This document shows, piece by piece, positions 19,567 through 45,335 of a stretch of 45,957 bases of DNA. Source of the DNA: Chara braunii (Eukaryota > Plantae > Charophyceae). The position numbers and the translations under genes are program-made. The DNA is taken from assembly GCA_003427395.1 (NCBI GenBank), contig BFEA01000004.1, positions 7,100,037 to 7,145,993 of the forward strand, written 5' to 3'. The first letter of the stretch is position 1; each line of letters opens with the position of its first letter. Under the pieces are notes generated by a model. It was given only the letters and a program-made list of their open reading frames with translations, ran no database searches and had not been told where the DNA came from.

Positions 19567-20024
19567 CACTATGCGGCCAATCTCGGCCACCAGATCTCAG
19601 GATCATGCGATCGAGATTGACCGTTGTCGAGCGCATCGGTCCCTCAATGGGCGAGACCCTCCCAGCCGCGTCACGTAGGAGTTGGTCTTATCGCGATACA
19701 AATGGAGCTTCCATTGCCGCTCCGACCGAGTGTACCAACCATGTCTCTCGCCAGCCCCTACTACAGGATAGGGCTTATGCGAGGTACAACTTACCTCAAC
19801 TTGCGGGAACTGTCATCTCCCTTCGGTGGGCGTATCCCTGCCGAGCTACCAGTCCACACTACGAAAGTTAATCAGTTGCAACCGCAGAGGTGTGTCAGCC
19901 GAGGGCATTTCTCATACGCTGTAGCATAGGGGGTACACGCGGTCCCACGCCTCTATCGGGCCCGCATTTGGGGGCTGAAGTGCCGAGCGCTGTCGAGCGC
20001 ATCGGTCCCGCACGGGGACCCTCC
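19564..20024 (-). mobile_element. LTR 3' portion (U5-like) of the gypsy element, ending ...GTGACA at 19564
   Basis: Terminal CA abuts the unrelated U6 flank; internal direct repeat TGTCGAGCGCATCGGTCCC (~19625 and 19991); similar to the LTR remnant at 17.7 kb. Confidence 0.55.
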
Positions 20025-21676
20025 TTTATGGTGCCGGCCCTCAATCTCTGCTCAACCTCTTCACTTTCGCTTATCTCCTCTATCCTCACGCCCTGATGAT
20101 CTTCTACTTCCTGCCAAATACAGAAAGCGGCCGGGGGGGCTGGTGGAGCTGGGGCATTAGCACGCCGCAGAGCTTCTTCCCTTATCCCCCCTGGGATTCT
20201 CGGGTCTATGCACTCACCGTACATGTCGAAAAATCACCATCATAGCTTGAACTCATCAGGCAATCCTTTTCATCACTCTTCCGGACCTGACATAACTTAA
20301 TTGTGTGACCCTTTTGGCCACAATGCCAACAGATGGCATTTCTCCAATTTATCCTTCCTCTTCCATATCCTCCACCGCCTTGCTGGTCACTCTGATTCCC
20401 CGCACCGTTCCACCTGTCACTTCCTCCTCTCTGGGAGTTACTATTCGCGTTTCCTCTCCCATATCCCCCGCGGCCACCATTTCCTCGCCCTCGGCCTCAT
20501 CCTTGATTTTGTCTCCGTCCGGCGTCCACCACCTTGATTCCCTTGTGATCCTTGTGGGGCCGACTGCTGAGGTTGGCTTGGCGGTGGGTTCGAGTGACTC
20601 ACCTGTTGAGACTGGGGTCCCGACTGTTCACAGGAAGCAGTACTCATCCGCGCTCCGGCACATGATCCATGTGGCCCGCCCGTTGGCCATGGTGCATATG
20701 AATAGTGTCCACGCCAATGATTGGGAGGTCCACAACCTGGCCATGACCCATAGGGCGCTGGTGCGGCTTGACCGGACGACTCTGGGGGTGGCATCGCCAC
20801 AGCCGGCGCGGCTTGACCTTTTCCTGAGCCTTGCCCTCCTTGAGTCGTGTTCCTTGCCTTCCTTTGAGCCTTTGTCAACTTTTGTGGTTCAGGTTCCTCT
20901 TCTTCTTCTTCCTCCTCCTCTAGCACTGCCACCTTCTTTCCTTTCCCTTGGGCTTGTGGCGCCGTCATAGCCTTCTTTCTTGCCTCCTTTTCTGCATCGT
21001 GCTGGGTCACAGTCTCTTCTATCATTAGTTTGAAGTTGCCCCCATCACTAGCGATAGTATCCAAAGTCTTCCTTTTCTTCCTAGCCTGTTTCATCTGGAA
21101 GATGTCTACCTGGCCCAACTCTCCCTCTAGCACGCCTTCTTTTATGGCACCCCAAGTAAGTTTTTTTCCTGGCGCAGCTTTCTTGGTTAGCGACGAGGCT
21201 TCCCAATTCTTGAAGTGCCCCAGGAAAGTGGCACACTGTTCTTCTTCTGCCAGCCCTAGGACTTTTTTTGCCATCTTCTCAAATGCTGTGGCAAAGGCCC
21301 CTACCGTGGAGAACTCGTCCCGTCTCAACATTTCCACGTCTTCTTTTGTGAGAAGGACGTCCCCTAACTTGAAACGCCTCTGCATCTCTTCTTTAAACCT
21401 TGCCCACTCACCATTTGCGTCGGCCGCTACTTTCATTACCTCAGGTCTAAGCTCCCACCATAAGTACCTAGGCCTCAACTTGAATTTGTCTGCCTCTGAT
21501 GCCTCGCAAGTGACCTGCTCCAACAGCTCAAGCCACTCGGACACCCTATCCCCATTGAACTGGAAGATGTTAACCTTGGGCACCAGAAGCCGTGCCATCT
21601 CTCTCTTTTCCAAAGCCTTGACGAAGTCCTCCGGTGTAGCACCCGGGCCCTGCTCGATTCCATCGGAGTCCGGCAT
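20020..21676 (-). pseudogene. gag: Ty3/gypsy gag, N-terminal block (capsid-like region, Gly-rich linker, CCHC knuckle)
   Basis: MPDSDG...VPKVNIFQFNGDRVSEWL...; frameshift near 20520; CWHCGQKGHTIKLC (CX2CX4HX4C) at ~20293-20334; ends at AGTIKE. Confidence 0.88.
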
Positions 21677-22023
21677 CTTTGTCCTTTCTCAAAACCTGTT
21701 GCAAAAAAAACAATTTCGACAAACATCTTGCCGTCAAACCTCTAAACTCTCTAGTTCCATTATTCAATCGAACATACTTTTAATAACTAAGGTAGTCTAT
21801 CCGGCCTTTATATCGTAATTTCGACTCTATTATTTGAAACGAATACACACAAAGCACACTCTCAACCTTACTCGCAATCAAAAATAAATTTTGTTAGGCC
21901 ATCGAAGATAGCACAATACTCATATCATCATCAAACTTCTTCATCAAGGGTTGTTGTTTTGCCTGAATCATCAGCCTGCTCTTAACCTGGGTTCCTTCAC
22001 TGTGGACCCCGGTAGGCAGCCGA

Positions 22024-22043
22024 GATCCCCGGCAACGGCGCCA
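22024..22043 (-). promoter_or_regulatory. Primer-binding site complementary to tRNA-Asp, abnormally fused to pol instead of an LTR
   Basis: TGGCGCCGTTGCCGGGGATC is the complement of the plant tRNA-Asp(GUC) 3' end, the Athila-type PBS. Confidence 0.9.
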
Positions 22044-22740
22044 CCTCGTCTTGAAGTAGAGCATTGGCCAAGAGGTATATCCCACCTATCGACCTCTCGT
22101 GCCCTTCCACCTGTTGCGCCCCATTTTCCATCATGAGTAGGTCTTCGTGCAACTGGTATTTGTCTGCTAAGGCTAGATTCATCATCCACTGCACGTTTGA
22201 CACTCCCCATGAGTCTTCCTCAATGTAGGGCTTAAGAACTAGATCTGATCGTCGTACATGTCCTGGAGGCGCGAGCCACACAGGTTGTCCAGGAGTAACG
22301 TAGTTACCCACGGCCATCGACCAGGAGTTGATGTGAAGTCTCACATCCTCCTCACTGTCCAGAAACCCGTCGACTGGCGGAGTATCCTCGATCACTCCTT
22401 GATTATTTTTGTCCCAGTCGACTAGACTCAATCCGTCTGCTCTATTCTTATTTCCTGGAATTCGCTCTAATTCAAAATCGAACATCCAGATGTATGTTAA
22501 CCACCTGGCGATAGTCGGGTCTGATGGGGCGAAGTTCTTGAGAGAACCGGCTAGAGCAGTTGGGTCCACCCTCAACACGAACCTGTTGCCGAAGAGGTAG
22601 TTTCTAAAGATCCTTAAGCAATGGAGAACCGCCAAGGTCTCGCGCTTAAATTGAGAGTAATTTCTCTCAGTTGTGTTAAGCGTGCGACTTTCAAACCTTT
22701 GTGGCCGCTCTTCTCCGTTAAGGTCTTGCTGAATCAACAC
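22044..22740 (-). pseudogene. pol: Ty3/gypsy RNase H and linker (5' part deleted)
   Basis: RNYSQFKRETLA, LRVDPTAL, NRADGLS; ends at LLQDEVA. Confidence 0.9.
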
Positions 22741-24052
22741 ACATCCTAGCGCAGTTGGCCCTGCACAATTCCTTCTTTAGGCCCTTTATTACCAACTCCT
22801 GCTTATCTCCCCATTCCCAGTCTTGTCCTTGACGCACGAGCTTTCGAAGCTGTTCTGTCTTTGCCGCAAACCCTTTTATGAAGATCCTCCAGAACCCACA
22901 TGTCCCGAGGAAACTTCTCACCTCCGTAATAGTCTCGAATGGGGTTGGCCATTCGAGAATCTTATTGGTTTTCTTAGTGTCTGGTCGACGACCCCTCTCG
23001 TCGCACACAAACCCCAAGATGGTGGCCCCGCTCATGCAGTGTCTCGATTTAGACTCACTTGCAATGAGGTTATGCTCCTTTAGCAGGTTTAGGACTCTGC
23101 ACAGGTCTTGCACATGGTTCCAAACAAAGCGTCTAATCCCTGGCATTACCTCCTGCTCGTTCTTCTCTTTAGGCCCTTTTACGACTAAATCATCAATGTA
23201 AGGCTGAGTAATGTGAGGGCTTACTGACTGCATTGCCCTCACCATGTGCTTCTGTACCATGGCGACTGCATTTATCCACCCTTGTGGTGCGACGTTCATA
23301 TGAATTAACCCTCGAGGGGTATGCATTGTCGTCATCGGTCTGTCAGAGGGGTAAATAGGAAACTGGTCGTAACCAGAATATAAGTCTATGAGAGATATGA
23401 TGGCTCTCCCAGCGTATGCCTCTGAAAGCGCATCTGCGTTAGGGAGACTACCTGCATCTCTCATAGTTACAGCATTCAGGAGCTGCAAATCCTGTACCCA
23501 CCTCAAGGTCCCGTTTGGTTTGACGAAACAAAACCAAGGGGATGCATATGGTCCGCTCGAGTAGTCGGACACATGTGTGCGGATTTTCCCGTCAAGGTAG
23601 CTAACTACCTTTTTTTCGTCAGCCGGATTAGGGTACCGCGCGCCTCGCAAATTCCATGGCTCGTGGGGAACGGTATGTATCCTAATCATTGGGATTCTAT
23701 CCACGTCCAGACGGTCCCGTTCATCATCATTGAAGGCATATGCAGTATGCCTTCCTCTTATGGTCTCTACCATAAACCTCTCCTCTTGCGCCGTAAGGAA
23801 GCCGGGTTCCCCTATAATCAGCGTCTTTTCTGTCTCGGGAGTGATACGACATGACCCTATCTGTGCGTCCTCTCGCATTTGTCGTATCAATTCTCGTTCC
23901 CGCTCGTAATAAACTTTTTGCTCCTCAGTAACGAGTACGGGAACAGGGCGGCACTTCTGATCTACCCTCTTATACCGCCTTTGTGAACCCTGCTTGAGCT
24001 TACCCCTAAAAAGGCCGAGTTGCAGTTTGGGGCTGTGCTCCTGCGATTCCAC
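22741..24052 (-). pseudogene. pol: Ty3/gypsy reverse transcriptase
   Basis: YASPWFCFVKPNGTLRWVQD, IDLYSGYDQ, PQG, YIDD, VRSFLGTCGFWRIFI. Confidence 0.95.
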
Positions 24053-25139
24053 CTATCCTTCCAGGCACTCGATATACGAGTTCTGCCTCACCTTCACCTC
24101 TCCTCTCCATCACCTTTTCCCTGAGGGCTTCTACTGCCACAGGGTCTGCCATTCCATAGGTGGATACTATGTCCATAGCATCCCCTATATTAGTCAAGCT
24201 GAGGGAGAGGNCCTCNNATGGCTCTTCGCCTTCAAACACCTCACCCTCCAACCTCAACCTTTCTACCTCTGACTCTTCAATAGTAAAAGAGTCAGGGTTG
24301 GGCCGATTTCTTATGCTTCGTGGCCCTGTGTTCTTGCATGTGATTACCTCATAGCTCCCACACACAGGGTCACAAAGTACCAAAAACATGGTCCCATCAT
24401 GCTTATTCAGTATGACGGTCTTCCTTCAGCTCAAAAAGGATCGGCCCAATAGGATGGGATGGTCGAGATCGGTCATTACAAAAAAACAACTTCTCACTTT
24501 AACCTTGCCAATTTTTAAAACCACTCTCGATGCGGTCCCTATGAACACAGACCGACTATTTGCTCCCATTAAAACTCCATTATCCGAGCGATCAATCTCC
24601 ATCCCCAAGCGTAAAATATGTTCCTCTTTTATGAGGTTCATTTCCGCCCCAGTATCCATCATTGCCGTGCACATTTTTCCTTTTACTACTACGTCCAAGC
24701 ATCCACATGCGACGGACTTCCAATCCATCTTCGTGCCTGTCTCTGCCCATTCCGCTTCCCTGGGGATAATGGTTCCCAAGCGCACACTTGCCACTAACCT
24801 TCTGGACAATCGAGCCTTTAGCTCATCCCTCAATTTTAGAGCGGAGGCGAGGATATCTTTTAAGTTCATTAGGTCGTTATGGCCCTCAAGGAGTCAATTG
24901 ACCATTCCTTCCACGTCAAACCCCTCCTCCATTCTGACCTTATATTTTCTTCTCTTGCCCTCTTGTTCCTTACTAGCGCCGGCCTTTGCATCCCTCTTTT
25001 TGGCTATTTCTTCAGCCTTCTTGTCCTCTTCCGTCCTTAACCTTTCAACAGGTCCTCCATCTTCTCCATCGTATCTCTTGCCCTTACCAAATTATCATCT
25101 TCTCCTTCGCCGTCCGATTCAACCACTATGGGTTCCTCC
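24006..25139 (-). pseudogene. C-terminal block of the gag-protease ORF (aspartic protease)
   Basis: Starts EEPIVVESD; MDTGAEMNLI active site; ILLGRSFL; in-frame TGA stops (probably from CGA); ends ...TRPF*. Confidence 0.9.
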
Positions 25140-25871
25140 CCTTTGGGTCATCTCTGCAGTCTGCTCCTCTTTCCGTTGAGTCCTGCCAATATGCTGGTCC
25201 TCCCGTCTCTCCTGCCTCTGGGACCTGTGCTCTCTCCTCTGGCCATCCCTCTGAGCTCCTGAGGTCATGCCCTGCTCAGAGGTTCTCCTCTCTGCAGTTT
25301 CTGGCTCCTTCCTCTTTCTTCCCATACTCCTCTCGTCAGCCTGACGTGCCGGAGTATAGTGGTTCCAAAGCAATTTCTTGCAATGGCCCCAGTTCTGGGC
25401 AGGCTCCACAATAGATCTGACGAACGGCCTGAGGTATTTCCTCACAAACAGAATAAAACTCCTCACCCTCTGGCTTGGTGGCTCGTTGATGCTATCTGCA
25501 AACTCGTCGTAGCCCTTCAGGAACTCCCACAGGTTAGTGGCATCAAAACGAATGGGCCGTCCATCTCTGCCTAGCGGCGATGGGTGCAAGCCCTCCATCT
25601 TCTGCTCAAAATCCTGCCAGGTCAATGACTCCCTGACGAAGTTGGCAAGGGGCTGTGCCCACTCGCCTGCTCCTCGCACCTCCCGCAGCATCCTGCTACT
25701 ATCCCATCCAAACTCATGACCGTGCCTCCTGAACCCAACCATGAACAGCTCAACGTTGTCTCCTGTATAAATGGGTGGCCAGTCCTCTCTCCTGGCCCTC
25801 ACCTGCGCCCCCTGTCTGGTAACCCCCAGTGGGGTTTCCACTGGCCCTGCCCCTCCCCTCCCTCTTGGCAT
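25135..25871 (-). pseudogene. N-terminal block of an extra ORF (ORF3) downstream of integrase; Gag-capsid-like
   Basis: MPRGRGG...PPIYTGDNVELF...RFDATNLWEFLKGYDEF...W; preceded by a pyrimidine tract and TGCAG acceptor ending at 25897. Confidence 0.65.
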
Positions 25872-26136
25872 GGCTGCCCAAAAACTGGTGTCAAGCCTGC
25901 ACAACAAGGAAGAGACAGACAAAAGCACACAAAGGGTAAGTAGGTTCGACAAACAAAACAGGAGACAGACATTCCCCTCCCATATCTACCTTAACTACAT
26001 ATACATACATGTGTAAATACACGTATATAAATCTATCTTAATACTATACTCTATCACACCATTCTACTGAGAAACATACACAATTTTCCCATATATATAT
26101 ATATATATATCTAGTATTACTTAACAGAAAGGGATT

Positions 26137-27520
26137 CTAAATTGTGGGACCCATGCTCACCTCGTCTCGAGCGACAAACTTCTTCAATCTCGAGCCTGAC
26201 ACCCAATCTTTCCAGGCAGTCCCATTCAGCTCTTCAATCTGGTATGCCCCATGCTCTCCACTCCTCGTGACCATGTATGGTCCTAACCACCTCTTGTCCA
26301 ACTTTCGCGACCACTGCTTCTCTAAGGATGAATGGTATAGTAGCACAACGTCGCCCACCTTGAGAGGCTCCTTCCTTACCCTTGCCATCTTATCCCACCT
26401 GAACTTATCCCTCTGTCCGGTGTCAGCCACCTTACTCGCCGCACTTTCAATTTTGTCCTCTATGACATTAATCTGATGAACCCTTAAGTCTAGCAGTTTC
26501 TCAAATGACAAGTTTGTCTCGAGGTCCTGCCGCCTCCAAGTCTTTAGGAAACTTTCGATAGGGAAGGTCGCATGTCTGTCATACCACAACGTTGCTGGCG
26601 CGTAGTTGGTGCTTCTTCTGACAGTGATTTTATCCACGAAGAAGGCGACCCTTAGGAAGTTAGGCCACTGATTTGGCCTACCATTCGTCCACTTAGCGAG
26701 GAGATTCGTAATCGTACTATGACCCCTCTCCACAGGTGCATTAGCTTGAGGGTGCGCCGCAGTAGTATACTCTGCGATCACTCCATACCCTCTCAGCAGT
26801 TCTTTCACCTCAGCACAAGTGAATTCGGACTCTCTGTCCATTACGAATTTGGAGACAAAAGGGTAGCGGAGGTAATACTCCTCAATGCATCGAGCCAAGG
26901 TCTCACCAATTTTTGTGCGTATGGCTCTGCCATCTACAAAACCGGAGAGGTTGTCACGTGCATCGAAGATGAAGTTATACCCACCTACTCCCAGCGGCAT
27001 TGCCAATAAGTCCAAATGTACGACCGCCCCAACCTCACGTACGTACCTTGGGTGAAGCGGCTCCCTAGGTCTAATGGAAGACCGCTCCTGGCATGAAACA
27101 CATGACTTGCAATAATCGTTGATCATTCGTCCCATGCCATCCCAATAGTATAGCTCGTGTATTTTGAGGAAAGTTGTATCCTTACTCCTATGTCCACCTG
27201 CCTTACCATCATGTAGGGCAGTTATGACGTCGATCTGACGAGCGATGCCGCAGACTACCCTTCTTGGAGTCTTCCCTTTACTCTTCATAAATAGATGGTC
27301 ATCCCTTACTAAGAAGTTTGGTCGCATCTTGAGAACTTTCTCGCACGTATCTTTCTCTCATTTCGCACGAAAGGAGCATTCCTAATTCCAGATATATCCC
27401 GTTATACTCCTCCGTGCGAAAAACCTCTTTTATCTCTCCCTCTTCAAAATCGTGGTCCTCTCCTTCGTGAACTATATTCTCATTCTCGCCTTGCCGTTGA
27501 TCCCCGATCCTTGCCACCTC
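26137..27520 (-). pseudogene. pol: Ty3/gypsy integrase (HHCC, DDE, GPY; no chromodomain), with a frameshift near 27310
   Basis: LHDGKAGGH...CVSC; VHLDLL; FVMDRESEF; PVERGHST; WLGPY. The upstream linker starts EVARIGDQ. Confidence 0.93.
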
Positions 27521-28850
27521 CGCTGGCAAGTAGCATTACAACTGACAATCATTCATACGATGTCGCTCACAATCCCGTCTAGGCAATATCCTGCATCAGT
27601 ATCTGAAGTAGTAAACGACAGCTCCTAGAATTTGCAATTGCTGCTGCTAAAACCATCCTCTCTCAGCAGCAACGTCGCCGCACAAATTCAAACAACAGTT
27701 GTCGACAGGCTAAGTCTCAGTAGCAGACCCAATGATGACCTCCATCATAGTAGTACCTCATGCTTAACAACACCATCAATACTTCAAAAGAAAGAAAAAG
27801 GGAGACTCGCTGCTCTGTTGTGCTGCTGTAAATAAGACAACAATGTCGGAGAACTCAATCAACATAGCAGTTCGCAGACTTTCAGGGCATCAATAACCAC
27901 CAAAATAGCAGTTGCCGATCCACAGACCATGTGCATGACTCAAGAATACTTCAACTGTTGGTGTCGCAACTTAAGTAAGTCTGTTGCTGCGAAAATCCAA
28001 ATCAGGCCTCCAGGGGTCCGCTACAGCCTTCCAAAGGCCTGCTACAACGCCGTAACAGTAGCCAAACATCAATCCACTGCTGCTAGAAGTCCCTTCTTAT
28101 AGACAGATGTTTGCTGCAATACCAAAAAAAAAAGGTCCACAATGACTCAAATCTGGGTGAAGTAGCAACGGAGCAGGACCTAGACCAATCGTGAAGAGAA
28201 AAGTCCAACCCACTGCATTATTCATCAATGCACACAGTGGAACTGATTCCCCCACTAAAGTACGACCAGATACAATGTCAGATTTTGTACTGAGCTAAAC
28301 TGTGCAACTCAACACCTTGGTTCCTCTCGTATGGCGGCTGCTCCAACACTCATCATCTTGCAAAACAAAAGTAAATCTTCGGCTAGAACATGGGAAGATG
28401 CATGCCCTTCTTGCCTGATATCTTAACTTCCGTTCGTCCCGTATTACCGCCACTGCCAGCCAAGTACACCCTTCCCTCCATTTTCTTGTATTCCACTTCC
28501 TCCTCCTCTACCTATTTCCGATGTGCCGCCAAGCAAACTGCGGACCAGCCAGCAACCGTAGTGATACAATGTGAATGTATATGTGCTATTTTTCCGGTCC
28601 GGTACAACCTTCCCACACCTGTCTACATGACTACACCCACGCTCGCGCACACATGCACACACCTGCACACTCACCACCATGCTCACGCTCCAGCGCATAC
28701 GTGCTTGTGCCTACATGCTCACCCGTATGCACGCGTGATTACACCTTCCTGCTTCTCTTCTTCCCCTCTACCTCTATTCCTCCTCTAAAAGTTGTCATGT
28801 CCAAGGATATGCCGCGGCACATTCTTCAATAATCTACGAGCAAGTGCTTG

Positions 28851-28895
<45 letters not shown>

Positions 28896-31800
28896 TGTGC
28901 CTTCTCTCTCTCCAGGTACGGGCATACCTGGCCATTTCACCTAACAGGAGGGGGAGAATACTTAGCGTTCAAGGCATGATTATGGTCGAGATCCCCCTGA
29001 AAAGGCAAGCACGAGGATGAGCCTACTCACGAAGACATAGCTGAGTCACGATGGTGATGATGAGCCTGCTCCCGAAGACATAGCTGAATCACGATGGTGA
29101 CGATGAGCCTGCTCCCGAAGACATAGCTGAATCACGATGATGACGATGAGCCTACTCCCGAAGACATAGCTGAATCACGATGGTGGGCTCAAGCAACAGA
29201 ACCACGAAATCTGCAGCGTCAGAATCGGGATGAGGAGCACCAACCCGTCACACAGTCCCCCACCAGAAAATGCAGAATGAGAATGAATCTGATGCAAAAA
29301 CGCAGGAAAATACACCGCCGAAATTCCTTCCCTGCGTTTGCTTTCTGCCAAGCACAACGCAGCCTCTGACTCACACAACAGAAAAACGGCTACCCTATCG
29401 CAGAATCTAACCGCGCCAATCGATTCCTGGTGCCTCAAAACCCCAAGTTAGGCTCTTATTTCGCTCGAATCCGTAAAGAAACGAATGAGATAAGTGTTTT
29501 CTCCTCCTTGCCATATCCTCTTTCCCGTCACCTCCGNGCACTCTCTTCATCTCCTAACTTTAATCCAACTAACGTTTCACCAAAAGTGAACCCAAATTCG
29601 GGGTCGCCATAGTCAATAACCCTGAAATAGACTCTTCTTCGGCCCCATTTCATCAAGTAACGGCCTATATCTCATCTCTTCACCCCCTGTTTCCCATTCT
29701 TCTTGTTCTCCTATTTTGAATGCACCTTGCTCATACCCACGTCCAGATCCATTTGCCCTCCTTGGTTCTTTAGTCAGGCCAGCGCAATCTCCATCTCCGT
29801 TCTCTCTCTAGGCCGGCCAGCGCAGTCTCCTTTGTCCCCCTCGAAGTGGGAATCTGCCTCGTCTCCCTCGAAGTGGGAATCTGCCTTGTCTCCCTTCATA
29901 CCTGCTCTCCCTCGACACCATCTTTCCCTTCTTCTTCCCCGTAGCCCATTACTCCATGAGCCTCTCCCGCCAGCCAAAGTACGCCCAGATGATAGCGCAC
30001 GGTCCAACAATCTTGAGCACCTTAATGGAAGTGAAATCCTGATCGCCGGACCTCGCTGTCCTATATAGCCTAGAATGGCATATTTGCATAGCTTACTCGT
30101 GCCACACTCAAGGAATGAATCNGGCCAAATCTAGGCACTAGGTCCATTCANCCCAAGAAAAANTGTAGTGCAGCTCCTCAAAAGGAGAAGAGGGGCTGAG
30201 AAAAGAAATACAAATAAAATAAAAATAAAAGTTGGGCTTGGTGAAATGCCTAAACGATGGGGTCGTGGCCCACCTAGGTGCCTTCTCCGGATCGGACTCT
30301 GATCTATATTTCAACAGTCTGTGAGTATGCCAATCGAGCTAGGCTTGTTGGTACTTGCTAGCATTGCTGCAGCCCCCACCAAAATCCCTCTGGTCCGCTG
30401 TTCCCAGGCGTAGCTCCCCTACTACCGCCCCCAACAGGCATGCTCACATCCACTCCTCACAGCGGATCGTGGGCAGCGGACGTAGCCTCCCTCTGGCTGC
30501 GTCCTGCTTCGAGGCCTGTAGCATGAGCCTAGGCGGGACGGATCCCAACACGGATCTTGGTGGTCATTATTCAAATGAGAATTTTTGAAGATGGAAGTGG
30601 GGAGGGGCTCTATGTGACCGCAGCTGCAGCCGGCGGCCTCCGCCCTGGTGTGCCCGCCCCATTGTGCCCAAGCGCAGTCTACCATCTTTCTGGTCTCAAC
30701 GGGAATGCTCACACTGCGGTCCCAAATCTGCAAAATGTGCAGATTTTGGAACAGACTAGTTCGGGGTTTTGAGCATGGTTCAGGTCACACTACTGTACCT
30801 TTTCAGGTTGGATAGAGCCCTGGCTGTCTGGAGCATTGGCGAACCGATACTTTGCTGGTCACCCGGCGCCATCCACATATTGTGCAAAAAAATCCAGGTC
30901 CCGAAATAAATAAATAAAAATAAATAGGGCATTTCCCTTGCCCCGCGGCTCCACAGGCCGCTGACAAAATGGGCACACCAATGGTGCATCCGGGACTTTG
31001 GCAAAAATCTGCGTGACCAGTCTTGTCCCTCATGGGCCCCAACGGGCATGCTCCCACTCAGTTCCTACTGCAGATCGTGGTTGGCGGACACCGCACTTGC
31101 AGAGAGGCGCCCAATGCTCAACTTTTCCTCCGTCTCGCGGTCAGTCACCCATCAGTTGTCATGCACGTTGACTTTCTCCGTCTGCATTTCAACAATTCAT
31201 GGGCGTCAATCGAGCTACGCTCGCTGGACTCCTCAAACAACTCCGATACCGGCATTGTCACCGCATCCCAGAAACGGGACCGACAACAAAAAAAAATAAT
31301 TAGATAAAAATAAAATAAATAAAAAAATAAAAACACAAGCTTCAGGAACTCGCGCTTTGGGGAAGAGAGATTGTCAGTACCACTCTTAGTTCCGCCAACC
31401 GGGCCTACGGATGGGCCGACAACAAAACCAAGGGGGATAGCCCTGCCGGGCCCTCAACCCCTCGATATCTTCAGGAAATGCTCCTCCGCTCTTGTAATGC
31501 TGGGTGCTGGCCTCCATCCCGAGATCTGCTGGCTGAAAGTTCAGTACGTTAACCAATAGGGCTAAGCCCAAGCCTGACCTTAGCATACGCGAATTCGTAT
31601 ATCAGTAGTATTCGCAGCCTGTCTGGGCCTGTAGTTAATGCACTGAGGCCGCCGCTTGCTCCGCCTTCGAGCCTAAGGCCTCGCAATGCCGTGCTTGGCT
31701 GCTTGGGAGGAAAGTTATCGCTCAGATCACCATGCCCACTGCCCCGCCACACTGCGGCCGCGGCCGAGGCTTTCATAGCCCTCTACACCCGTCAAACGAG

Positions 31801-33521
31801 CGCGCTCTTACCCCCCTTCGGTTGGAAAGACCCCGACTTTTGCTCATGCCGTACCAAGTTAAGCTTTCCTCGGCTCCCACTGTNNNNNNNNNNNNNNNNN
31901 NNNNNNNNNNNNNNNNNNNNNNNNNNNNNNNNNNNNNNNNNNNNNNNNNNNNNNNNNNNNNNNNNNNNNNNNNNNNNNNNNNNNNNNNNNNNNNNNNNNN
32001 NNNNNNNNNNNNNNNNNNNNNNNNNNNNNNNNNNNNNNNNNNNNNNNNNNNNNNNNNNNNNNNNNNNNNNNNNNNNNNNNNNNNNNNNNNNNNNNNNNNN
32101 NNNNNNNNNNNNNNNNNNNNNNNNNNNNNNNNNNNNNNNNNNNNNNNNNNNNNNNNNNNNNNNNNNNNNNNNNNNNNNNNNNNNNNNNNNNNNNNNNNNN
32201 NNNNNNNNNNNNNNNNNNNNNNNNNNNNNNNNNNNNNNNNNNNNNNNNNNNNNNNNNNCTATCCAACCCTCTAGCTTATTTCTAACTGGGACCGCCGAGC
32301 GGTCTGTTTTATTCACACTAGTCAAACATTTAGCTAACGCGTGCCCACAAAGTGCATGCCCGCACACACTCCCTGAATTAACCATGCGTGCGCTCGCCAT
32401 TTCCTGAATTCCGAGAGTCAGTCGCGACCGAGCGAAAAACACGCCGCTCTCTCAAATACCATCAAGTGTGCTCCCGCTGCGGGGTGCAAAAATGCGCACA
32501 ATTACCCTTGTAAGGGTAATGGTGTCGACAGTTTTTCCGGACCCTATTAAGCGACGTCCCCGTCGCGTCGAACAATCAAAGGCTATAAGCACTCCAAATC
32601 CCATCTGCTGACGAGGTAGTAACCATTCCGACTAGCCGGCTCGACTCCGTTAGAGGCATCTTGTCAATCTACCCCAGTCACGACGTTCCACTGCCACGGT
32701 TTTAACCTGGGTCTCCCACATCTTGGCCTAGGAGTTAGGGTGTACTGTCATCCGTACTACAGCGTAATACCTGCTTCCAAGTAGTAGATTGGTAGCCCTC
32801 CTCCCTTCGTCGTAGACATCTGCCGGTTTATCGTTGGGTGTCCTAATGAGTCATCGTCCCGCATACGGGGTCATAACTCAGGACGCGGGCCCTAACCGAG
32901 ACCTCTCTAAAAAACCAGGGCACCTTTAGTCCCCAAAATGGTAATTTTTACCATCTCAAATATTTCTCATAATAACTGTCCACCCTGGTGTCTACACAGG
33001 AGGTTTCAGGTCTCCATCTTGGCCCACCGCAGAATGGTCGATCACACCGTATCCACGGCTTATCACGCTGTTATATAGCGATGATGCCCTCGTTGGTTGC
33101 GCAACGATAGGCGTACTTACCAACTCTTAGACTCATTCAACCCCACTGACCCCCCCCCTAGCTATCCCTCTCCGGGCGGCCGACCCTTCAAGATTTAACC
33201 ATTGGTGAGTCGTGGTCTCGCTGCCAAGTTGCGCCGGTCAGCGGCCCTCGCTGGGAGTTAGGTTCTATAGTTCCAACGATGCTAAGTATAGCCCCTTAGC
33301 TTGGCCTCACAAAATATGTCCCCCTAGACTAACCATTGTGGTCTGACAAATAGCTCTGGACAACCTCTAGATTCACATACCCTCCCAACCTCGGACCATG
33401 TGGGGGATAGTGTCTCTTTCTCTTTGTGTTCCAGCAACTTTCTCTCTTATCCACAAGGTCGTGCCCCCCCTTTACTTTGATCAGAACAGGCGGCGGTCAC
33501 ACGTCTTAGGGACACCTCACA
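27521..33521 (-). mobile_element. Long non-coding LTR-like region (may include nested pieces; contains a gap)
   Basis: Candidate LTR start TGTGAGGTGTC at 33521, just after purine-rich GATGGGAGA and downstream of the ORF3 3' UTR; TATA-like TATATAG at ~30061-30067; no real ORFs. Confidence 0.4.
29016..29185. repeat. 43-bp tandem repeat x4
   Basis: GATGAGCCT.CTC.CGAAGACATAGCTGA.TCACGATG.TGA. starts at 29016, 29059, 29102 and 29145. Confidence 0.92.
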
Positions 33522-34577
33522 AAAGTCTCCCATCATGATTGCCAGAAAATTTCCATCCATAATTCTCACAAAGATTTTGGTCTGCCCTCGCCAGACTTTC
33601 ACTCATACATACAATTTCCTCATCATTATAGCAACTCATTTGAGTGCGCCCTCATAGTTCCACTCTTATATATATGTGGAGAACCTAACGGTCATTGAGT
33701 CTCCTTCTCTCGTTTTCTTATGAACCATACAAAAGACACAACTTTTAGTTGTGACCTCTCCATTTATCATCACTCAAATTCTTTTGAACTCAACACATAA
33801 TCCCTTCTTCCAAACAAACGTGAGGTGCACTCTCTTTCACTGTACTTATGACTTTGTCTGTTCTAATGACAGATATGCTTAAGTACAGAGGAAAATAGTG
33901 CAGGTCAGGTCATTTCCACAACATTTATTCTCGTCACAATAATCATTCATATGGGCAAGTCAACAACTGAGAGTGAGCGTGACACACCACACAAAAAAGA
34001 AAAAAAATCTGAGATTCGCACAAATACACAGAACGCGGGGACCTTGCAAATAAGCAAAGGTTCCTGTTAATATCGAAAGGATCAAAATATCGTACAAAAG
34101 AAATAAAATATCGTACAAATTACCGGGGTATCGTACCAAGTGCCACAGTATCCAACCAAAGATCAAGGTACCTGAAAAAAGTCAAAATATCCGAGAAAGT
34201 CAAAAAACAAAAGAGAGTCAGAGTATCCACACCTCACATCACTCACACACTGTCCGACTCACCCTGCTCTGAAAGAGAAAGAATCATAAAATCACACAAA
34301 AGCACTACCTAGAAGCTAGAAACACTCCACACCACACTAAAAAAAGAGAAAGGAAAACCGAAGTAGTTACTGTCATACACAATACTATCCTATGTACACT
34401 AAGTCTGAAAGTCTATATGCGAAAGTAAACATCTTTGTAATGACTCAATTAACTGATGTACATGGGCGTGATCCAATCCTCCATGTGTTCTCCTATATAC
34501 AGTCATCCATCAGTAGTGAGTCAGAGATGTTCTACACATGTCAGAATCTAGACTTTTTCGGACTCTATTCGTAAATC

Positions 34578-36155
34578 CTACTCCTGATCACTCATGTCCT
34601 CCTGCAGTTGCCTATACAACTGTGCCCGTATCCCATCACGAGTCTTCAGGATCAGGTTTCCATCTCCGTCCCTGCGCACGCCAGATGGATCCCATGAAAA
34701 CAAACCATCGGCCTCATCCTTGAGGCTTTTGGAACAGGTTTTCTGTGGGTGCTTGCCTTTCTTGCAGTAGAAGCATCTTCCAAACTTCTTCTGCTCCATC
34801 TTATCAGCTGCATGGGAGGGTACAAATGAGGGGTTTGCTGTGGCCTCACTGGTGACCTCCTGCTGTGGGTGCTCTGGGGGAATGGGGCATGCTGCTCTGT
34901 CATCTGTTTGCGCCATCTGCTCACTCACTCGCTCCTCTGCCCCGGATCCAGTGGCCCAAGATCCCAGTGCATCCTCCAGACCTGCAACCAGAGGCATATC
35001 CTGAGGTGGTGGGGTCTTCTAAGAGACCTCCCGCTCCTCCCTCTCCTCAGCCTCCGCCATGGCCTGTCCCACACTCTCCTGAACCTTCTGTCGCCCCACA
35101 GTCTCCCCCTGAGTCATGGGAAGTGCAGCCTCATCCATCGCATCCTCTGCTGGTGGCCTCGCCTCATGTGCCAAGACTGTGGGCATCCTCCACTCAAACC
35201 CCCCAGTCTCTGACCCCGTCCCTGCTAGAGCCTCCTTAGGCTGTAACATCTCCTTATCTAGCAGGGGGATTTCCTCATCCTTCTGCTCGTTTGCCCTCTC
35301 TTCCACCTTCTGACACTTGAAGGCCTCCTCTGCAGGCTGCTTCCTGATCTTAAGCCCCTGGACCTCTGTCCAATCCACCACCGTAGTCGGCGTCTGTTGT
35401 ACACATTTGGCCTCAAGATCCTCTATCCTTTTCTCCCACTTGGCTTCCTTTGCCTGAAAAATATTACGTTGTACCTGCAAGTAGGTCCTCAGGGTGTCAT
35501 TGACTTTGTTGAGGGTCTGGTTGACCTGTCTGATGGCCTCGTTGCCTGCCCACGCCTTCTCCACCTCAGTCTTTATGGCTTCCATCTTCTTGTCCTGTCC
35601 CTCAAACTCCTTCTTGAGATCACCAATTTCTTTCTGCCAGTCCATTTTCTGCTCATGAGACGCCCGCGCCACCCTTGTCAACCTCTTCTCCATCTTTTCA
35701 TCAGAAGTCTTGGCCGTCGCAAAGCCCTCCTTCATAAGGCCCTTCAGGCTAATCAAGTCTGTAGACACCAGCTTAACCCCCATCTCTTGATGCTGCTCCC
35801 TGGACCTCCCTGTTGCCTCCAACAACTTATCAAAGTTGTCCCAAGCCTCCGTGAAAAAAGGAGTCTCATCGTCTTGAGTGGGTGAGCCATTCCCCTCTCT
35901 GTCTTCTAGTACCACAGGCTGCTCTCCCTGCTCAACTTTCTCGTGCAGCTCCGCCATGTTCTTGAGTCTGATTTGGACTCTGATTTCTCTCTCTATTGCT
36001 GCTCTCTCTTCCTTGTCCTGTTCCTTCTCTCTCGCAGCCTGATCCTCATCCTGTCCCTGACCCTGTGTCCTATGAGACGTCTCTGGCTGCATGCCTGGCC
36101 TAGGAGTGGCCTCAGGTATCTGAGCAGGTTGAGGAGGTACATCTGATCCCTCTGA
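34578..36155 (-). pseudogene. C-terminal block of ORF3 (coiled coil plus CCHC zinc knuckle)
   Basis: Frame is open from 36155; E/K/Q-rich heptad region; CFYCKKGKHPQKTC (CX2CX4HX4C); disruption near 35010. Linking it to ORF3N is inferred. Confidence 0.65.
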
Positions 36156-39100
36156 ATGCCTTCAATGATGATGAACGGGGCCGTCTAGACGTGGATAAAA
36201 TCCCGATGATTAGGATACATACCGTTCCCCACGAGCCATGGAATTTGCGAGGCGCGCGGTACCCTAATCCGGCTGATGAAGAAAAGGTAGTTAGCTACCT
36301 TGACGGAAAAATCCGCACACATATGTCCGACTACTCGAGCGGACCGTATGCATCCCCTTGGTTTTGTTTCGTCAAACCAAACGGGACCTTGAGGTGGGTA
36401 CAGGATTTGGAGCGCCTGAATGCTGTAACTATGAGAGATGCAGATAGTCTCCCTAACGCAGATGCGCTTTCAGAGGCATGCGCTGGGAGAGCCATCATAT
36501 CTCTCATAGACTTATATTCTGGTTACGACCAGTTTCCTGTTTACCCCTCTGATAGACCGATGACGACAATGCATACCCCTCGAGGGTTAATTCATATGAA
36601 CATCGCACCGCGAGGGTGGACAAATGCAGTCGCCATGGTCCAGAGGCACATGGTGAGGGCAATGTAGTCAGTAAGCCCTCACATTACTCAGCCTTACATT
36701 GATGATTTAGCCGTAAAAGGGCCTAAAGAGAAGAACGAGCAGGAGGTAATGTCACGGATTAGACGCTTTGTTTGGAACCATGTGCAAGACCTGTGCAGGG
36801 TCCTAGACCAGCTAAAGGAGCATAACCTCACTGCAAGTGGGTCTAAATCGAGACACTGCATGAGCGGGGCCACCATCTTGGGGTTTGTGTGTGACGAGAG
36901 GGGTCGTCCACCAGACACTAAGAAACCCAATAAGATTCTCGAATGGCCAACCCCATTCAAGACTATTATGGAGGTGAGAAATTCTCGAATGGCCAACCCC
37001 ATTCAAGACTATTATGGAGGTGAGAAGTTTCCTCGGGACATGTGGGTTCTGGAGGATCTTCATAAAAGGGTTTGCGGCAAAGACGGAACAACTTCGAAAG
37101 CTCGTGCGCCAAGGACAAGACTGGGAATGGGGAGATAAGCAGGAGTTGGTAATAAAGGGCCTAAGGAAGGAATTTGAATAAGGGGGTCTAGTACTGGGAG
37201 TACCAGACCACTCGACAGTAATGACACGACCTTTTATTGTAGAAACTGATGCAGGGTCAACTGCACTACGAGGTGTGTTGATTCGGCAAGACCTTAACGG
37301 AGAAGAGCGGCCACTAAGGTTTGAAAGTCCCACACTAAACATAACTGAGAGAAATTACTCTCAGTTTAAGCGCGAGACTTGGCGGTTCTCCATTGCTTAA
37401 GGATCTTTAGAAACTACCTCTTCGGCAGCAGGTTCGTGTTGAGGGTGGACCCAACTGCTCTAGCCAGTTCTCTCAAGAATTTTGCCCCATCAGACCCGAC
37501 TATCGCCAGGTGGTTAACATACATCTGGATGTTCGATTTTGAATTAGAGCGAATTCCAGGAAATAAGAATAGAGCAGACGGATTGAGTTGAGTCGACTGG
37601 GACAAAAAAAATCAAGGAGTGATCGAGGATACTCCGTCAGTCGACGGGTTTCTGGAAAGTGAGGAGGATGTGAGACTTCACATCAACTCCTGGTCGATGG
37701 TCGTGGGTAACTACGTTACTCCTGGACAACCTGTGTGGCTCGCGCCTCCAGGACATGTACGACGATCAGATCTAGTTCTTAAGCCCTACATTGAGGAAGA
37801 CTCATGGGGAATGCCAAACGTGCAGTGGATGATGAATCTGGTCGTAACAGACAAATACCAGTTGCACGAAGACCTACTCACGATGGAAAATGGGGCGCAA
37901 CAGGTGGAAGGGCACGAGAGGTCGATAGGTGGGATATACTTCTTGGCCAATGCTCTACTTCAAGACGAGGTGGCGCCGTTGTTGGGGATCTCGGCTGCCT
38001 ACCGGGGTCCATAGTGAACGAACCCAGGTTAACAGCAGGCTGATGATTCAGGCAAAACGACAACCCTTGATGAAGAAGTTTGATGATGATATGAGTATTG
38101 TGCTATCTTCGATGGCTTAACAAAATTTATTTTTGATTGCGAGTAAGGTTGAGAGTGTGCTTTGTGTGTATTCGTTCCAAATAATAGAGTCGGAAATACG
38201 ATATAAAGGCCGGATAGACTACCTTAGTTATTAAAAGTCTGTTCGATTGAATAATGGAACTAGAGAGTTTAGAGGTTTGACGGCAAGATGTTTGTCGAAA
38301 TTGTTTTTTTTGCAACAGGTTTTGAGAAAGGACAAAGATGCCGGACTCCGATGGAATCGAGCAGGGCCCGGGTGCTACACCGGAGGACTTCGTCAAGGCT
38401 TTGGAAAAGAGAGAGATGGCACGGCTTCAGGTGCCCAAGGTTAACATCTTCCAGTTCAATGGGGATAGGATGTTGAGTGGCTTGAGCTGTTGGAGCAGGT
38501 CACTTGCGAGGCATCAGAGGCAGACAAATTCAAGTTGACGCCTAGGTACGTATGGTGGGAGCTTAGACCTGAGGTAATGAAAGTAGCGGCCGACGCAAAT
38601 GGTGAGTAAGCAAGGTTTAAAGAAGAGATGCAGAGGCGTTTCAAGTTAGGGGACGTCCTGCTCACAAAAGAAGACGTGGAAATGTGGAGACGGGACGAGT
38701 TTTCCACGGTAGGGGCCTTTGCCACAGCATTTGAGAAGATGGCAAAGAAAGTCCCAGGGCTGGCAGAAGAAGAACAGTGTGCCACTTTCCTGGGGCACTT
38801 CAAGAATTGGGAAGCCTCGTCACTAACCAAGAAAACTGCGCCAGGAAAAAACCTTACTTGGGGTGCCATAAAAAAAGGCGTGCTAGAGGGAGAGTTGGAC
38901 CAGGTAGACATCTTCCAGATGAAACAGGCTAGGAAGAAAAGGAAGACTTCGGATACTATCGCTAGTGATAGGGGCAACTTCAAGCTAATGATAGAAGAGG
39001 CTGTGGCCCAGCACGATGCAGAAAAGGAGGCAAGAAAGAAGGCTATGGCGGCGCCACAAGCCCAAGGGAAAGGAAAGAAGGTGGCAGTGCTAGAGGAGGA

Positions 39101-40020
39101 GGAAGAAGAAGAAGATGAACCTGAACCACAAAAGTTGACAAAGGCTCAAAGGAAGGCAAGGAACACAACTCAAGGAGGGCAAGGCTCAGGAAAAGGTCAA
39201 GCCCCGCAGGCTGTGGCGATGCCACCCCTAGAGTCGTCCGGTCAAGCCGCACCAGCGCCCTATGGGTCATGGCCAGGTTGTGGACCTCCCAATCATTGGC
39301 ATGGGCATTGTTCATATGCACCATGGCCAACGGGCGGGCCGCATGAATCATGTGCTGGAGCGCCGATGGGTACTGCTTCCTGTGGACGGCCGGGACCCCA
39401 GTCTCAACAGGTGAGTCACTTGAACCCACCGCCAAGCCAACCTCAGCAGTCGGCCCCACAAGGATCACAAGGGAATCAAGGTGGTGGACGAGGACAAAAT
39501 CAAGGATGGGGCCGAGGGCGAGGAAATGGTGGTCGCGGGGGATATGGGAGAGGAAACGCGAATAGTAACTCCCAGAGAGGAGGAAGTGACAGGTGGAACG
39601 GTGCGGGGAATCAGAGTGACCAGCAAGGCGGTGGAGGATATGGAAGAGGAAGGATAAATTGGAGAAATGCCATCTGTTGGCATTGTGGCTAGAAGAGTCA
39701 CACAATTAAGTTATGTCAGGTCCGGAAGAGTGATGAAAAGGATGGCCTGATGAGTTCAAGCTATGATGGTGATTTTTTCGACATGTACGGTAAGTGCATA
39801 GACCCGAGAATCCCAGGGGGTATAAGGGAAGAAGCTCTGCGGCGTGCTAATGCCCCAGCTCCACCAGCCCCCCCGGCCGCTTTCCGTATGTGGTAGGAAG
39901 TAGAAGATCATCAGGGCGTGAGGATAGAGAAGATAAGCGAAAGTGAAGAGGTTGAGCAGAGATTGAAGGCCGGCACCATAAAGGAGGGTCCCCGTGCGGG
40001 ACCGATGCGCTCGACAGCGC
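36156..40020 (+). mobile_element. Inverted duplicate of 19987-23739 (RT-RNaseH-PBS-gagN-LTR stub)
   Basis: Collinear reverse-complement match from ATGCCTTCAATG to CGACAGCGC; PBS at 37971-37990 with two C>T changes; independent indels and stops. Confidence 0.95.
36935..37026 (+). repeat. Perfect 46-bp tandem duplication that frameshifts the RT copy
   Basis: ATTCTCGAATGGCCAACCCCATTCAAGACTATTATGGAGGTGAGAA twice. Confidence 0.95.
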
Positions 40021-43000
40021 GACTCGTCGTCGGTCGACTAGGACGCATCCTACTCACCACGCGTTACGTTATGCTTTAAAACATAAAATTAAAAATACAC
40101 TCAAACAAACATAAGAAAACACTCTTATTCCCTTCAGTATCCTACGCATAACCTTCCAATGCAGAAATCGGTTAAGCGACACGTGCGAGACTTAGTATAA
40201 AACTGCACGACGCAGGGTCTTCTCATGTCGACTAGCAATGCAAGCATACGTAAGCAGTCGCAATGACGACGTACCATGTAGTACTCATAATCACGCGGTC
40301 CTCGATAGGTTCGAGAGTCGCGTTCGACACCCAAGTGTCGGTTGACACGCACCTTGAGGGGTTAATCTCTCGACGCTAGACAACCGCAAAGGCGGTTGAG
40401 AATCCCAACTTCTTATGGGCCTTGCGGAGAGTGGGTGGTACACTGGTTCATACCTGTGCAGGTTCATACATGTGGTGTCAGTCGTCTCTCGAGGCTTTGG
40501 AAGCAAGTTCCATCATCCAGGGTCTGGAGAGAGATCAAGGGGTTTAAACTTTAACGGCTGCCACAAACTCCAACGTCCAGCTATATTAATTATAAAAAAC
40601 AGAAGGGTAAAAGAGAATCTCCCTAGACATAATTCGTTTAACCCTTACGCACTGTCACAGCAGGTCGCGTGGACACTCAAGACATATGTATATATATATA
40701 AATAAAGGAGGATAAATATGAGACGACCACTTCTTACAATCATAGTGAGACTCCTTTCAACCATATATGTATGTAATCGCCGACAGTCATATCATGAGTC
40801 CGAACCACAAACATATTTGCAATCACATCAAAGATTCAACCAAAGTCCATACACTACACGAGGTCAACTTCAACCATTCTCTACACTCACACCCCTCAAT
40901 TTAGCCATACAAACTCCAACCTTTGTCCAACCTTCCATAAATAAAGCACTCAATATCTTTGTTAAATGGTCATTCAATAAAGTCCGGTGAAAACCCAACA
41001 AAACAATTCAAACCACAGGGTTACGTTGGCGAGAGTGAATTGGAGTTGAATTGTAAACCGACGAATCGACAACCAACATATTATCAGTGATATCAGAAGA
41101 TGATCCCCATGGGATCAAGTTGAATCTAGTCCAATCCCGAATCGAATAAATCAAGAGGACCTGTAACATAAGACAGACCAATTCCCAAGGCTAAACTATT
41201 AATGTATGAGGAATGAATTTCAATAACACATTCTCACTCTAGATTCTCATGCTAACTAAGTCAAAGTCTACCACTAAACCATTGTCCAAAGAAAGGTAGA
41301 CCTTTGGCAGAATCTCACCTTTTGCAGGGTGGATTGTCATAATTGCTACTTGTCAAAATATAATCTAATTCCTTCAAACTAAGAAAATTTCGACAGTGTT
41401 TTCCGTAAGAAAAATGCCTTCTCATAATTTATACTTAGTTCGAGTATGAAAACGGAAATAATCTCTAACTCTTGGAAAATCAAAATTTGTCTATCTCTCT
41501 GAATTAGAAAAAAAATTGGCAGCATCTCCTTTAGAAAAGTAGACTTCCCAGATTTATACTAACTCGGATATGAACTCAAACATAACAATTGAGTTTTATC
41601 AAGACAAATATTAACTAACTTTTTAGTTTTGTAGAAATTCCGGCAGCGCTTCCCATAGGAGAAGTAATTTTCGAAAATTTATACAAAGCTAAGTTCAGAA
41701 TGTGAAATAATCTTCATTTTCCAAAGTTAAATTTTGTCTAACTCCTTGAATTAGCAAAAATTCGGGTAACACTTTCCCTATAAAAAAAAAATTCCAAATT
41801 TTTACCAAGTTAAATATATAACTTAGACAAAAAAGTTGAACTTTGAAAGTCAGATTGGACTAACTTCTTGGTTTTGTAGAAATTTCGACAGTGCTTCCCG
41901 TAGGAGAAATACCTTTGCAAGATTTATACAAAGCCAAGTATAACAAATGATCTTAGAAAACACTCTTTGTGAGGAAGTCAACAGGTGGAAAGGAGAGTTA
42001 CCATTAGTAATAACACAACCCCGTGCTTTATTTGAAGTGCAGGGAAGATGTAGTTGCACTCAAAGGAATTTTTGCGCATTCAACAACTGCGCACAGCATC
42101 ACGACATGATAGCTATGCACGACTCTACGCCCAGTAAGCCAGTAAAGGCACAATCCCCGACATAGGAACACACGATGTGCATAGGAACGCAACAGCGGTA
42201 CGCACAACATTTAGCGCAATCTCCTTGTTATGACAACCACTCATGCCTGCGGCGACAGACTGAAAACCCAAATGTAGTCTTGATTTCATAGCACTAGCTA
42301 CAGTTGCGAGGGTACTACGTAGCAACAGTCTTAATCTTCATAATTGTGCTCAGATACATTGCCAGCACAACTGCTCTCAGCAGAAGTGGTCCCGTAGCAC
42401 ATAACTAACAATTTGCCTCACGTGATGACAACGCCCCGACTGACAACTAACAACTAAACCTGCCATCGCGCAGCTGACCTCACTCCATCTGTTGACAATC
42501 GGTGGGCGAGCGACACATCGAACCTCAAGTAAGCCTCTAACCTTCGCGGCCCGCTCCTTGCTATGTCAATCGTTTGGCTGAGCGAAAATAAGAATGACTT
42601 TCCTGTTAGAACGCAGAAAGGTACACGCAGATATTGGACAGAGCCATCAACACGACGTAAGCCCGCCCGCTGCTATTCTGTTGCCTCCCCCTCTCTATAT
42701 TCTTCCTTCTTTTTCCGTTTATTTTACTCTCACCCCTTACTCATCTCCTCTCCGACCGACACCTGGTCACCCTCGACGGTAAAGAGGATGATCACTGCGC
42801 CGCCTCGTTCGTAATGGTCAGTCTCTCTCTTCCTCTTCTCGTCCCGACCCTTTCTCGATGTGCTTGGCCCGTAATAGCGGTTGGGCTTGTTCCGTTTCGC
42901 ACTCTACAAAGACGGGCATAACCATGCATTTTGTCGCCTCTGACTCCTCAACAGGCCTTCTTCTTAAACACAAGTCGACTTGATCAGGTAAGTATGACTT

Positions 43001-43867
43001 ATTTTCATCAATAAAATGAGCAAAATCGGAATGAGAAAATGCGGGTAGGTTCATTCTGTATTTATGCAACAACAGACTACTTCCCTGTGCGCAGCCTATA
43101 CTCACTGTAGCACAAAATCTACCACCCCTCTCCCAAATCGAACTTCGGCAACCCGATCGAAGCGTCCCAAAACCTCTGAAACGCCTCTTCGTTCGCCCGT
43201 TTCCATGAAGAAATGGTGAGCTAGTGATCTCTACTCCCACCATAACCACTCTCCCGACATCACCGCACACTCGTTTTCTCCTACACCAACCAACTTACTG
43301 ACCTACTGCCAAGTCTAACTCTGCTATCGTATTCGCCCGCCCTTCAAACCATATTTCGTCCGTCAATTTGTCGAAATTCGTCTGGAAACGCGCGGGACAT
43401 GCAATTTCCCAGCCGCTTCCTTCCTTGCTCGTTGTCATCTCCACGCCCGACTTTCCTTATCTCCACGCTCGACTTTCCTTACTAACCTCTAACCTACTAA
43501 CTCTCTAGTAAAACCAGCGTAATATTTCGTTCCATCCGACCGAAAACGCTCAAATGGCGACTTCCCCAGCCCATTTTCACTAAGTAGTCGGTCGAGCTCA
43601 TCATCTTTTTCGCTTCTCCCTACCTCCTCTCTCTCCCGCTATAGCTTATTCCTAGCCTCCAGCCCAACTTCGTAGTCTAGTGTTGTTCCGCTAACCTTGA
43701 TACGACATCGGTGTTGACCGATACAAATAGTAGAACACTAGTCGTAGAAACCGAAATGCGCTACGGAGTAAGTAACACTCTCCCGACGGCTCGATCAGTT
43801 CGAAAGTCGATAGTGCCGCGGTATATGACCCGCGCTCGACTGCCACAACGGTTCCGACACCTTCACA
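40021..43867 (-). mobile_element. LTR-like non-coding remnant
   Basis: Candidate start TGTGAAGGTGTC at 43867 resembles TGTGAGGTGTC at 33521; no credible ORFs. Confidence 0.3.
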
Positions 43868-43877
43868 AGGGGGGGGG

Positions 43878-45170: not shown

Positions 45171-45214
45171 GTAGAATACCAGAGTGGCCCGATGGCACTT
45201 ACCCTGTCGGGCCA

Positions 45215-45335
45215 ATATATATATATATATATATCGTCACAAACAGAACTGCCCGGTAAAACCGTAGGCAGAGAGAGAGAAGAGGACAACAAACGAGGGG
45301 CTGTAACAAACTGTTTCGTCGGAGTTTCACCGACT

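Follow-up and report, generated by a model that had tools for sequence, protein, structure and literature searches.

In the window, that is, the whole stretch of 45,957 nucleotides of Chara braunii DNA analyzed here, a 20,026-bp insert (19991-40016) lies inside one high-copy LTR (Table 1). The insert begins with TG and ends with CA, with GCGC on either side (GCGC/TGTCGAG at 19987-19997 on the left; CTCGACA/GCGC at 40010-40020 on the right), and reads on the + strand, in this order, an antisense LTR stub (34 nt), piece B (PBS-gag; 2,027 nt), piece C (PR-RT-RH; 3,100 nt), piece D (INT-ORF3a; 2,387 nt), X+E (8,641 nt), and an arm in sense orientation (3,861 nt). The latter is made up of the last 1.8 kb of C (36156-37974), B (37968-39987), and the U5 stub (39983-40016). 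A scaffold gap of 375 Ns (31884-32258), whose true size may differ, falls inside E+X, between the arms, and we therefore infer the continuity of E+X, in which no clear PPT-LTR start was found.

Table 1. Coordinates of the insert, its pieces, and the interrupted target LTR in the window.
Feature	Positions	Strand	Basis
3' part of target LTR (very high-copy, related family)	19625..19986	-	ends CTCGACA at 19625, then ACGG
Left target-site duplication GCGC, NCGN type	19987..19990	.	sequence
LTR 3' (U5) stub, 34 nt, left terminus; putative first minus-strand cDNA	19991..20024	-	joint 40015 to 37968
Piece B: PBS (22043-22026, begins TGGCGCCG), leader, gag	20020..22046	-	sequence comparison
Piece C: gag-PR linker, protease, RT, RNase H, linker	22040..25139	-	Pfam
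Piece D: RH-INT linker, integrase, first half of extra ORF3	25134..27520	-	Pfam
Piece E+X: ORF3 second half (36155-34578) and long non-coding 3' region	27515..36155	-	sequence comparison
Fold-back arm, right terminus, ends CA	36156..40016	+	self-blastn, arm alignment
Right target-site duplication GCGC	40017..40020	.	sequence
5' part of target LTR	40021..41200	-	contig depth; high depth continues to end of stretch examined

Outside the insert, a relic at 42300-45300 is colinear with the 3' region of the insert (65-67% identity in two stretches of about 200 bp, and two weaker anchors) and may represent the 3' internal part that goes with the target LTR; against E+X, its anchors are colinear, that to the right of the gap being weak (E=0.077). 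The window further contains a broken reverse transcriptase on the + strand (13180-15125; PF00078 at 14655-15122), judged to be of LINE type from its translation, a 500-bp repeat in two copies of opposite orientation (12791-13289 and 45410-45916; 79-80% identical), a 676-codon open frame without a Pfam match (203-2233, + strand), and short tandem arrays at 29013-29185 and 41356-41939 (87-bp offset at 92%; about 250-bp offset at 68-72%).

The donor of the insert is a Ty3/gypsy element, as assigned by Pfam matches to protease (PF13975/PF13650), RT (PF00078), RNase H (PF17917), and integrase (PF17921), with no chromodomain or aRH match in the element. Among the matches listed, all 120 relatives of the RH linker were C. 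braunii proteins, as were all 38 relatives of gag, and in the Atlas the RT of a homologue had mainly fungal clusters as neighbours, which is a lead only. The gag-PR linker (24799-25047) differs from a contig of the abundant family at 27 of 251 letters, compared with about 2-3% for several other listed contigs, so that the donor may be a mosaic of subfamilies. The PBS is presumably of the tRNA-Asp type; no tRNA matching it was found in the viral-contig scan, and Rfam gave 0 matches in 17000-45957. Behind the integrase lies a long extra ORF (25985-25135 plus 36155-34578, minus strand), without a Pfam match, which ends in a C-x2-C-x4-H-x4-C knuckle; its product might be a second Gag-like protein, but no significant match between ORF3a and gag was found by BLASTP.

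The normal order of these pieces was taken from gene models of other copies. Among 142 of the 146 proteins matching at least two pieces of the window element, 245 of 247 piece-to-piece steps ran B>C>D>E (gag, PR-RT-RH, INT-ORF3a, ORF3b), and the two exceptional steps fell away from the window junctions; such models fix the normal order and are a weak test for rearranged copies. Relative to the GAG-PR-RT-RH-INT order of these other copies the window copy is itself permuted, in an order that is one of 24 for four same-strand pieces and one of 1,920 for five signed pieces. Moreover, each inner breakpoint is used twice, with 0, 0, and 1 codon lost between normally adjacent pieces. Thus, B ends in TIKE and C starts with EPIVV, with no residue lost (compare TIKEEPIIV of protein P0015); C ends in LQDEVA and D starts with EVARI, an overlap, as in P0003; and D ends in TQRGG and E starts with SEGSD, one residue (P) short of P0002. 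Piece B, in turn, starts at the LTR/PBS boundary.

Four of the junctions show short homologies, namely GGAGG at stub/gag (5 nt), AGGTGGC at PBS/RH (7 nt), GGAGG, possibly plus one base, at ORF3a/linker (5-6 nt), and GAGGTG at X/D (6 nt, based on one 599-bp contig that is 88% identical), the probability that a random join reaches at least 5 nt being 0.007 per join. These homologies form two chains, (stub, p1, p3) and (PBS, p2, p4), as expected if each landing site later became a template end. At the fold-back junction the homology is 0-1 nt. No contig or read bridging any abnormal junction was present among the matches listed, where contigs drop rare paths, nor was any loose end or joint at the D/C junction; the case for the junctions therefore rests on the assembly, on the fact that two of them recur to the left and right of the gap, and on the recovery of the empty target described below.

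For the ends of the insert, contigs of three DNA runs (X1-X3), from one sample that is possibly the source of the assembly, were compared with positions 33000-41200. Among the matches listed, other copies joined 40015 directly to 37968 in 5, 2, and 7 contigs of X1-X3, this joint reading LTR end CA, 2 nt, and then TGGCGCCG, so that the PBS stands directly behind the LTR 3' end; the stub is therefore the LTR 3' end, which in a normal element stands just ahead of the PBS, and both termini of the insert are the same LTR 3' (U5) end. Behind 40016, 78 contigs each in X1 and X3 diverged (agreement 0.35-0.36, consensus starting with ACGT, among the matches listed); as other copies continue there with unrelated letters, 40016 is an element boundary, with an NCGN bias. 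Furthermore, among the matches listed, 180, 138, and 176 contigs of X1-X3 matched from 40016 onward and carried sequence like the left flank before it, their loose-end consensus agreeing with the left flank of the window at 21 of 24 letters. With the stub being an LTR end and the flanks rejoining, 19991-40016 interrupts one high-copy LTR, whose empty form exists in other copies, the target being restored exactly. The summed contig depth at the target LTR was 8,000-95,000, vs. about 9-10 for exact single-copy contigs.

The LTR-end motif occurs in the window at 17712, 19625, 19991, and 40016 only, and self-comparison showed no direct LTR pair, the ends of the insert being two inverted 34-nt U5 stubs. 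GCGC fits the NCGN form and is also palindromic, and its length as a target duplication (4 bp) was measured at this locus only. The 4-mers behind the neighbouring LTR ends at 17712 and 19625 are both ACGG, with no upstream ACGG+TG found for either of them, and CG makes up 4-5% of the dinucleotides in the region. NCGN appears to be the preferred target of these Chara elements (GCGC, ACGG, and ACGG here; the ACGT consensus in other copies). A single metagenome match to the LTR end, in a contig of 69% GC without other similarity, was taken as chance.

The original prediction described 36156-40020 as the reverse complement of 19987-23739, including the RH-PBS and gag-LTR stub junctions, and this was confirmed: self-blastn found it as one long inverted repeat in the window (19987-22765 vs. 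40020-37250, 96.2%; 22767-23739 vs. 37174-36156), and both junctions were located in both arms (RH-PBS at 22046-22040 and 37968-37974; gag-LTR stub at 20024-20020 and 39983-39987). The GCGC target-site duplication accounts for the last 4 bp at the outer end of either arm, and the duplicate proper is therefore 36156-40016. The distance between the arms, predicted as about 12.4 kb, measures 12,416 bp. In a global alignment the arms differ by 136 mismatches in 3,744 columns (3.63%, SE 0.31%; K2P 0.037), of which 103 are transitions and 33 transversions, so that both the divergence and the transition bias proposed as checks are now available. The substitutions and the 46-bp tandem duplication of the right arm stand as predicted, and the deletion in the left arm (after 22767), given before as about 77 bp, is 74 bp; the left arm also has a 7-bp insertion, and three 1-bp indels further separate the arms. 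Likewise, the right arm does adjoin an open frame at 36155/36156, which is the minus-strand 5' start of the ORF3b piece (the ORF3C of the prediction) and not its end.

The divergence of the arms is neutral, without a purifying component. Mismatches are spread evenly along the length (p=0.19), 31 of 106 single-base codon differences are synonymous (30.8 +/- 4.6 expected without selection), and amino-acid changes private to one arm number 25 on the left and 34 on the right (p=0.30); a signal of purifying selection in the raw dN/dS of 0.72 was gone once transition bias was modelled. As predicted, the arms were sisters in the RT tree (SH 0.99) and the gag tree (0.91); in the RH tree they did not resolve as sisters, the left arm grouping with P0002 at 0.74. 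These protein trees (FastTree) were built from the closer sequences, keeping 22 of 62, 29 of 71, and 25 of 33 matching proteins, sets that may miss the youngest copies. In the best 40 of 449 rows, 24 listed right-arm sites differ from other contigs, 13 being private, 10 common with the left arm, and 1 in the deletion; at 2 of those 10 the letter shared by both arms opposes at least 97% of the other depth. Land-plant substitution rates are 1.3e-8 or 6.5e-9 per site and year, none being known to us for Chara, and under them the arm divergence would place the insert at 1.4 or 2.9 Myr.

Taken together, we consider that the insert is probably the product of one aberrant reverse transcription, with four jumps on an RNA shortened by RNase H, a fold-back onto its own cDNA, and integration of a molecule with two U5 ends. 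Minus-strand synthesis starts beside the PBS and RNase H destroys the copied RNA, as is established (PMC3187697). An RT that jumps downstream on the same RNA therefore runs out of template where its previous pass ended, and a new jump is needed; such repeated jumping predicts pieces in reverse order, of one orientation and with shared breakpoints, with the U5 stub first.

In this scheme, the steps of which we infer, tRNA-primed minus-strand synthesis would have copied only 34 nt of U5 and jumped, at GGAGG, to the end of gag. The RT would then have copied back to the PBS, a template end left by RNase H, and jumped at AGGTGGC to the RH end; from there it would have reached the first landing site and jumped at GGAGG into ORF3, and then the second landing site, jumping at GAGGTG into the 3' region. 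At the third landing site, reached in the same way but with the upstream RNA gone, it would have switched onto its own cDNA inside RT (0-1 nt homology) and copied this to its 5' end, so that RT-RH, gag, and the U5 end arose a second time as a mirror image. Self-priming on its own cDNA has been seen in vitro for HIV strong-stop DNA (PMC4668388). Second-strand synthesis, possibly, as we propose, from a second tRNA on the regenerated PBS, would have given a duplex with two U5 ends, which the integrase of the element would have inserted with a 4-bp duplication. The idea that the fold-back belonged to the same event, so that the arms can be dated like an LTR pair, is thus supported by the same U5 at both ends, the 4-bp duplication, and the empty site. 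Because it has no second LTR-end motif inside and both arms are broken, the insert was probably dead on arrival. Autointegration was discarded, as no internal junction carries the LTR CA end.

The closest alternative is an unlikely one, in which the same scrambled cDNA integrated by one end only and host repair folded the free end onto the left arm, the copy running through the stub into GCGC and rejoining the target by this palindrome. In its favour, GCGC is palindromic, which fits both readings and could serve as microhomology; besides, no second priming step would be needed, and homology of 5-7 nt, present at the other four junctions, is missing from the fold-back. However, copying would have to end precisely 4 nt beyond CA, with no base lost on rejoining; the target comes back intact in its empty form, and the duplicated 4-mer is of the NCGN type that also follows other LTR ends. 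Less plausible still, and in our view improbable, is that the site first received a normal element, which chromosomal repair (MMBIR/FoSTeS or break-and-rejoin) afterwards scrambled and in part duplicated. Microhomologies and breakpoint reuse are also given by chromosomal repair, as is generally known, but such events would have to swap the outer U3 end for a U5 copy exactly at the duplication with the flanks untouched, keep the 34-nt stub abutting the primer site, and arrive at the very order expected from minus-strand synthesis, one of 1,920. A later MMBIR/FoSTeS duplication, the other option of the original prediction, fails to explain why the homology ends exactly at the LTR ends while the flanks rejoin.

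Two further explanations are, to our judgement, very improbable. Were the scrambled unit a mobile rearranged subfamily, with the arms as two independent insertions, the fact that a subfamily carries the same letter at 8 of the 10 listed both-arm sites would be accounted for; against this, the D>C step occurs in 0 of 142 multi-piece gene models and the sole C>B case lies away from the junction, the divergence has no purifying component, and the flanks rejoin into one target. An assembly artefact, given equally little credence, would be in keeping with a short-read scaffold with gaps, one of them between the arms, and with the presence of only 29-42% of the sampled words of the arm in the contigs of the DNA runs. 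Nevertheless, the 136 substitutions and private indels between the arms bear out the earlier view that a simple collapsed artefact is unlikely; in addition, both junctions are present on either side of the gap, junction homologies of 0-7 nt lack the length needed to mislead an assembler, an exact 145-bp contig of single-copy depth matches the right arm, and the flanks rejoin in the assembled orientation.

Template-switching complexes of Triticeae, rice, and maize are oversized products of one aberrant reverse transcription that were inserted by integrase (Sabot and Schulman, 2007; PMC1950507), and the Chara insert shares with them a flanking duplication and similar outer ends. Those complexes, however, have three direct LTRs, two intact internal regions, and one switch at R, whereas the Chara insert shows five switches, a reversed order, an inverted arm, and two U5 stub ends, with neither a third internal LTR nor two complete direct internal regions. 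For retroviral RT, the portions consulted of two sources describe non-homologous switches giving deletions, deletions with insertions, duplications, and self-primed abortive cDNA (PMC3187697; PMC4668388), and those of a third describe HIV proviruses with inversions and asymmetric LTRs (PMC9278108). As far as these excerpts go, the likeness lies in RNase H-dependent switching, the sufficiency of very short complementarity, self-priming by cDNA, and the integration of such products; the ordered jumps reusing each breakpoint and the two-U5 integrant are unlike the retroviral cases they cover. Neither reverse-ordered pieces nor a two-U5 insert was found in our literature search, the scope of which did not include the 1990 and 1995 retrovirus papers and the Chara genome paper.

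In moss, 4-bp NCGN duplications flank 100% of the Phygy gypsy insertions (PMC6317226, Additional file 5), and, in the part of that work consulted, NCGN targets are reported only for moss Phygy among the lineages surveyed (PMC6317226). Phygy, a lineage of non-chromovirus elements, resembles the Chara family in the 4-bp NCGN duplication and the GAG-PR-RT-RH-INT order, and the Chara element likewise gave no chromodomain or aRH match. Phygy has mostly tRNA-Trp and no extra ORF, in contrast to the Chara family, with its long extra 3' ORF and a PBS that we take to be of tRNA-Asp type. Inverted termini are also found in DIRS elements and TIR DNA transposons; unlike these, the inverted ends in Chara consist of duplicated internal gypsy sequence and a U5 stub, and no tyrosine recombinase or transposase was detected in the ORFs scanned with Pfam.

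A further comparison is Mu killer of maize, a transposon-derived inverted duplication of ~4 kb (PMC3440606). As with this locus, a hairpin would be possible at the Chara insert by read-through from a flanking promoter; Mu killer differs in its DNA-transposon origin and in having been shown to silence, the Chara loop being 12.4 kb and its hairpin transcript putative. In one poly(A) RNA run, about 6% of which was read, 0 of 51 reads on the right arm were 99% identical to the window, and bins 36288-39849 were without depth, a result that is weak either way. It is accordingly a doubtful and rather improbable extension that Chara gypsy elements repeatedly make scrambled two-U5 fold-back cDNAs, which integrase inserts as large inverted-repeat loci, and that those loci that landed in an LTR, and so gained a promoter, act as hairpin silencers like Mu killer, directed at their own family and generated by the retrotransposon.

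In brief, the chemistry is known, the product is unusual and well documented, and it is one dead copy. Read as proposed, the + strand of 19991-40016 would be a cDNA in its order of synthesis, that is, a stepwise record of one failed reverse transcription. If true, four non-homologous jumps set by RNase H can take a gypsy RT through its RNA, and a 20-kb molecule with two U5 ends can serve as an in vivo substrate for insertion by gypsy integrase. Other such loci could be sought by two inverted LTR 3' ends together with an NCGN duplication, a pattern that LTR finders based on direct repeats would miss. Retrotransposition would thereby offer a route to multi-kilobase inverted repeats, a structure able to start RNA silencing.
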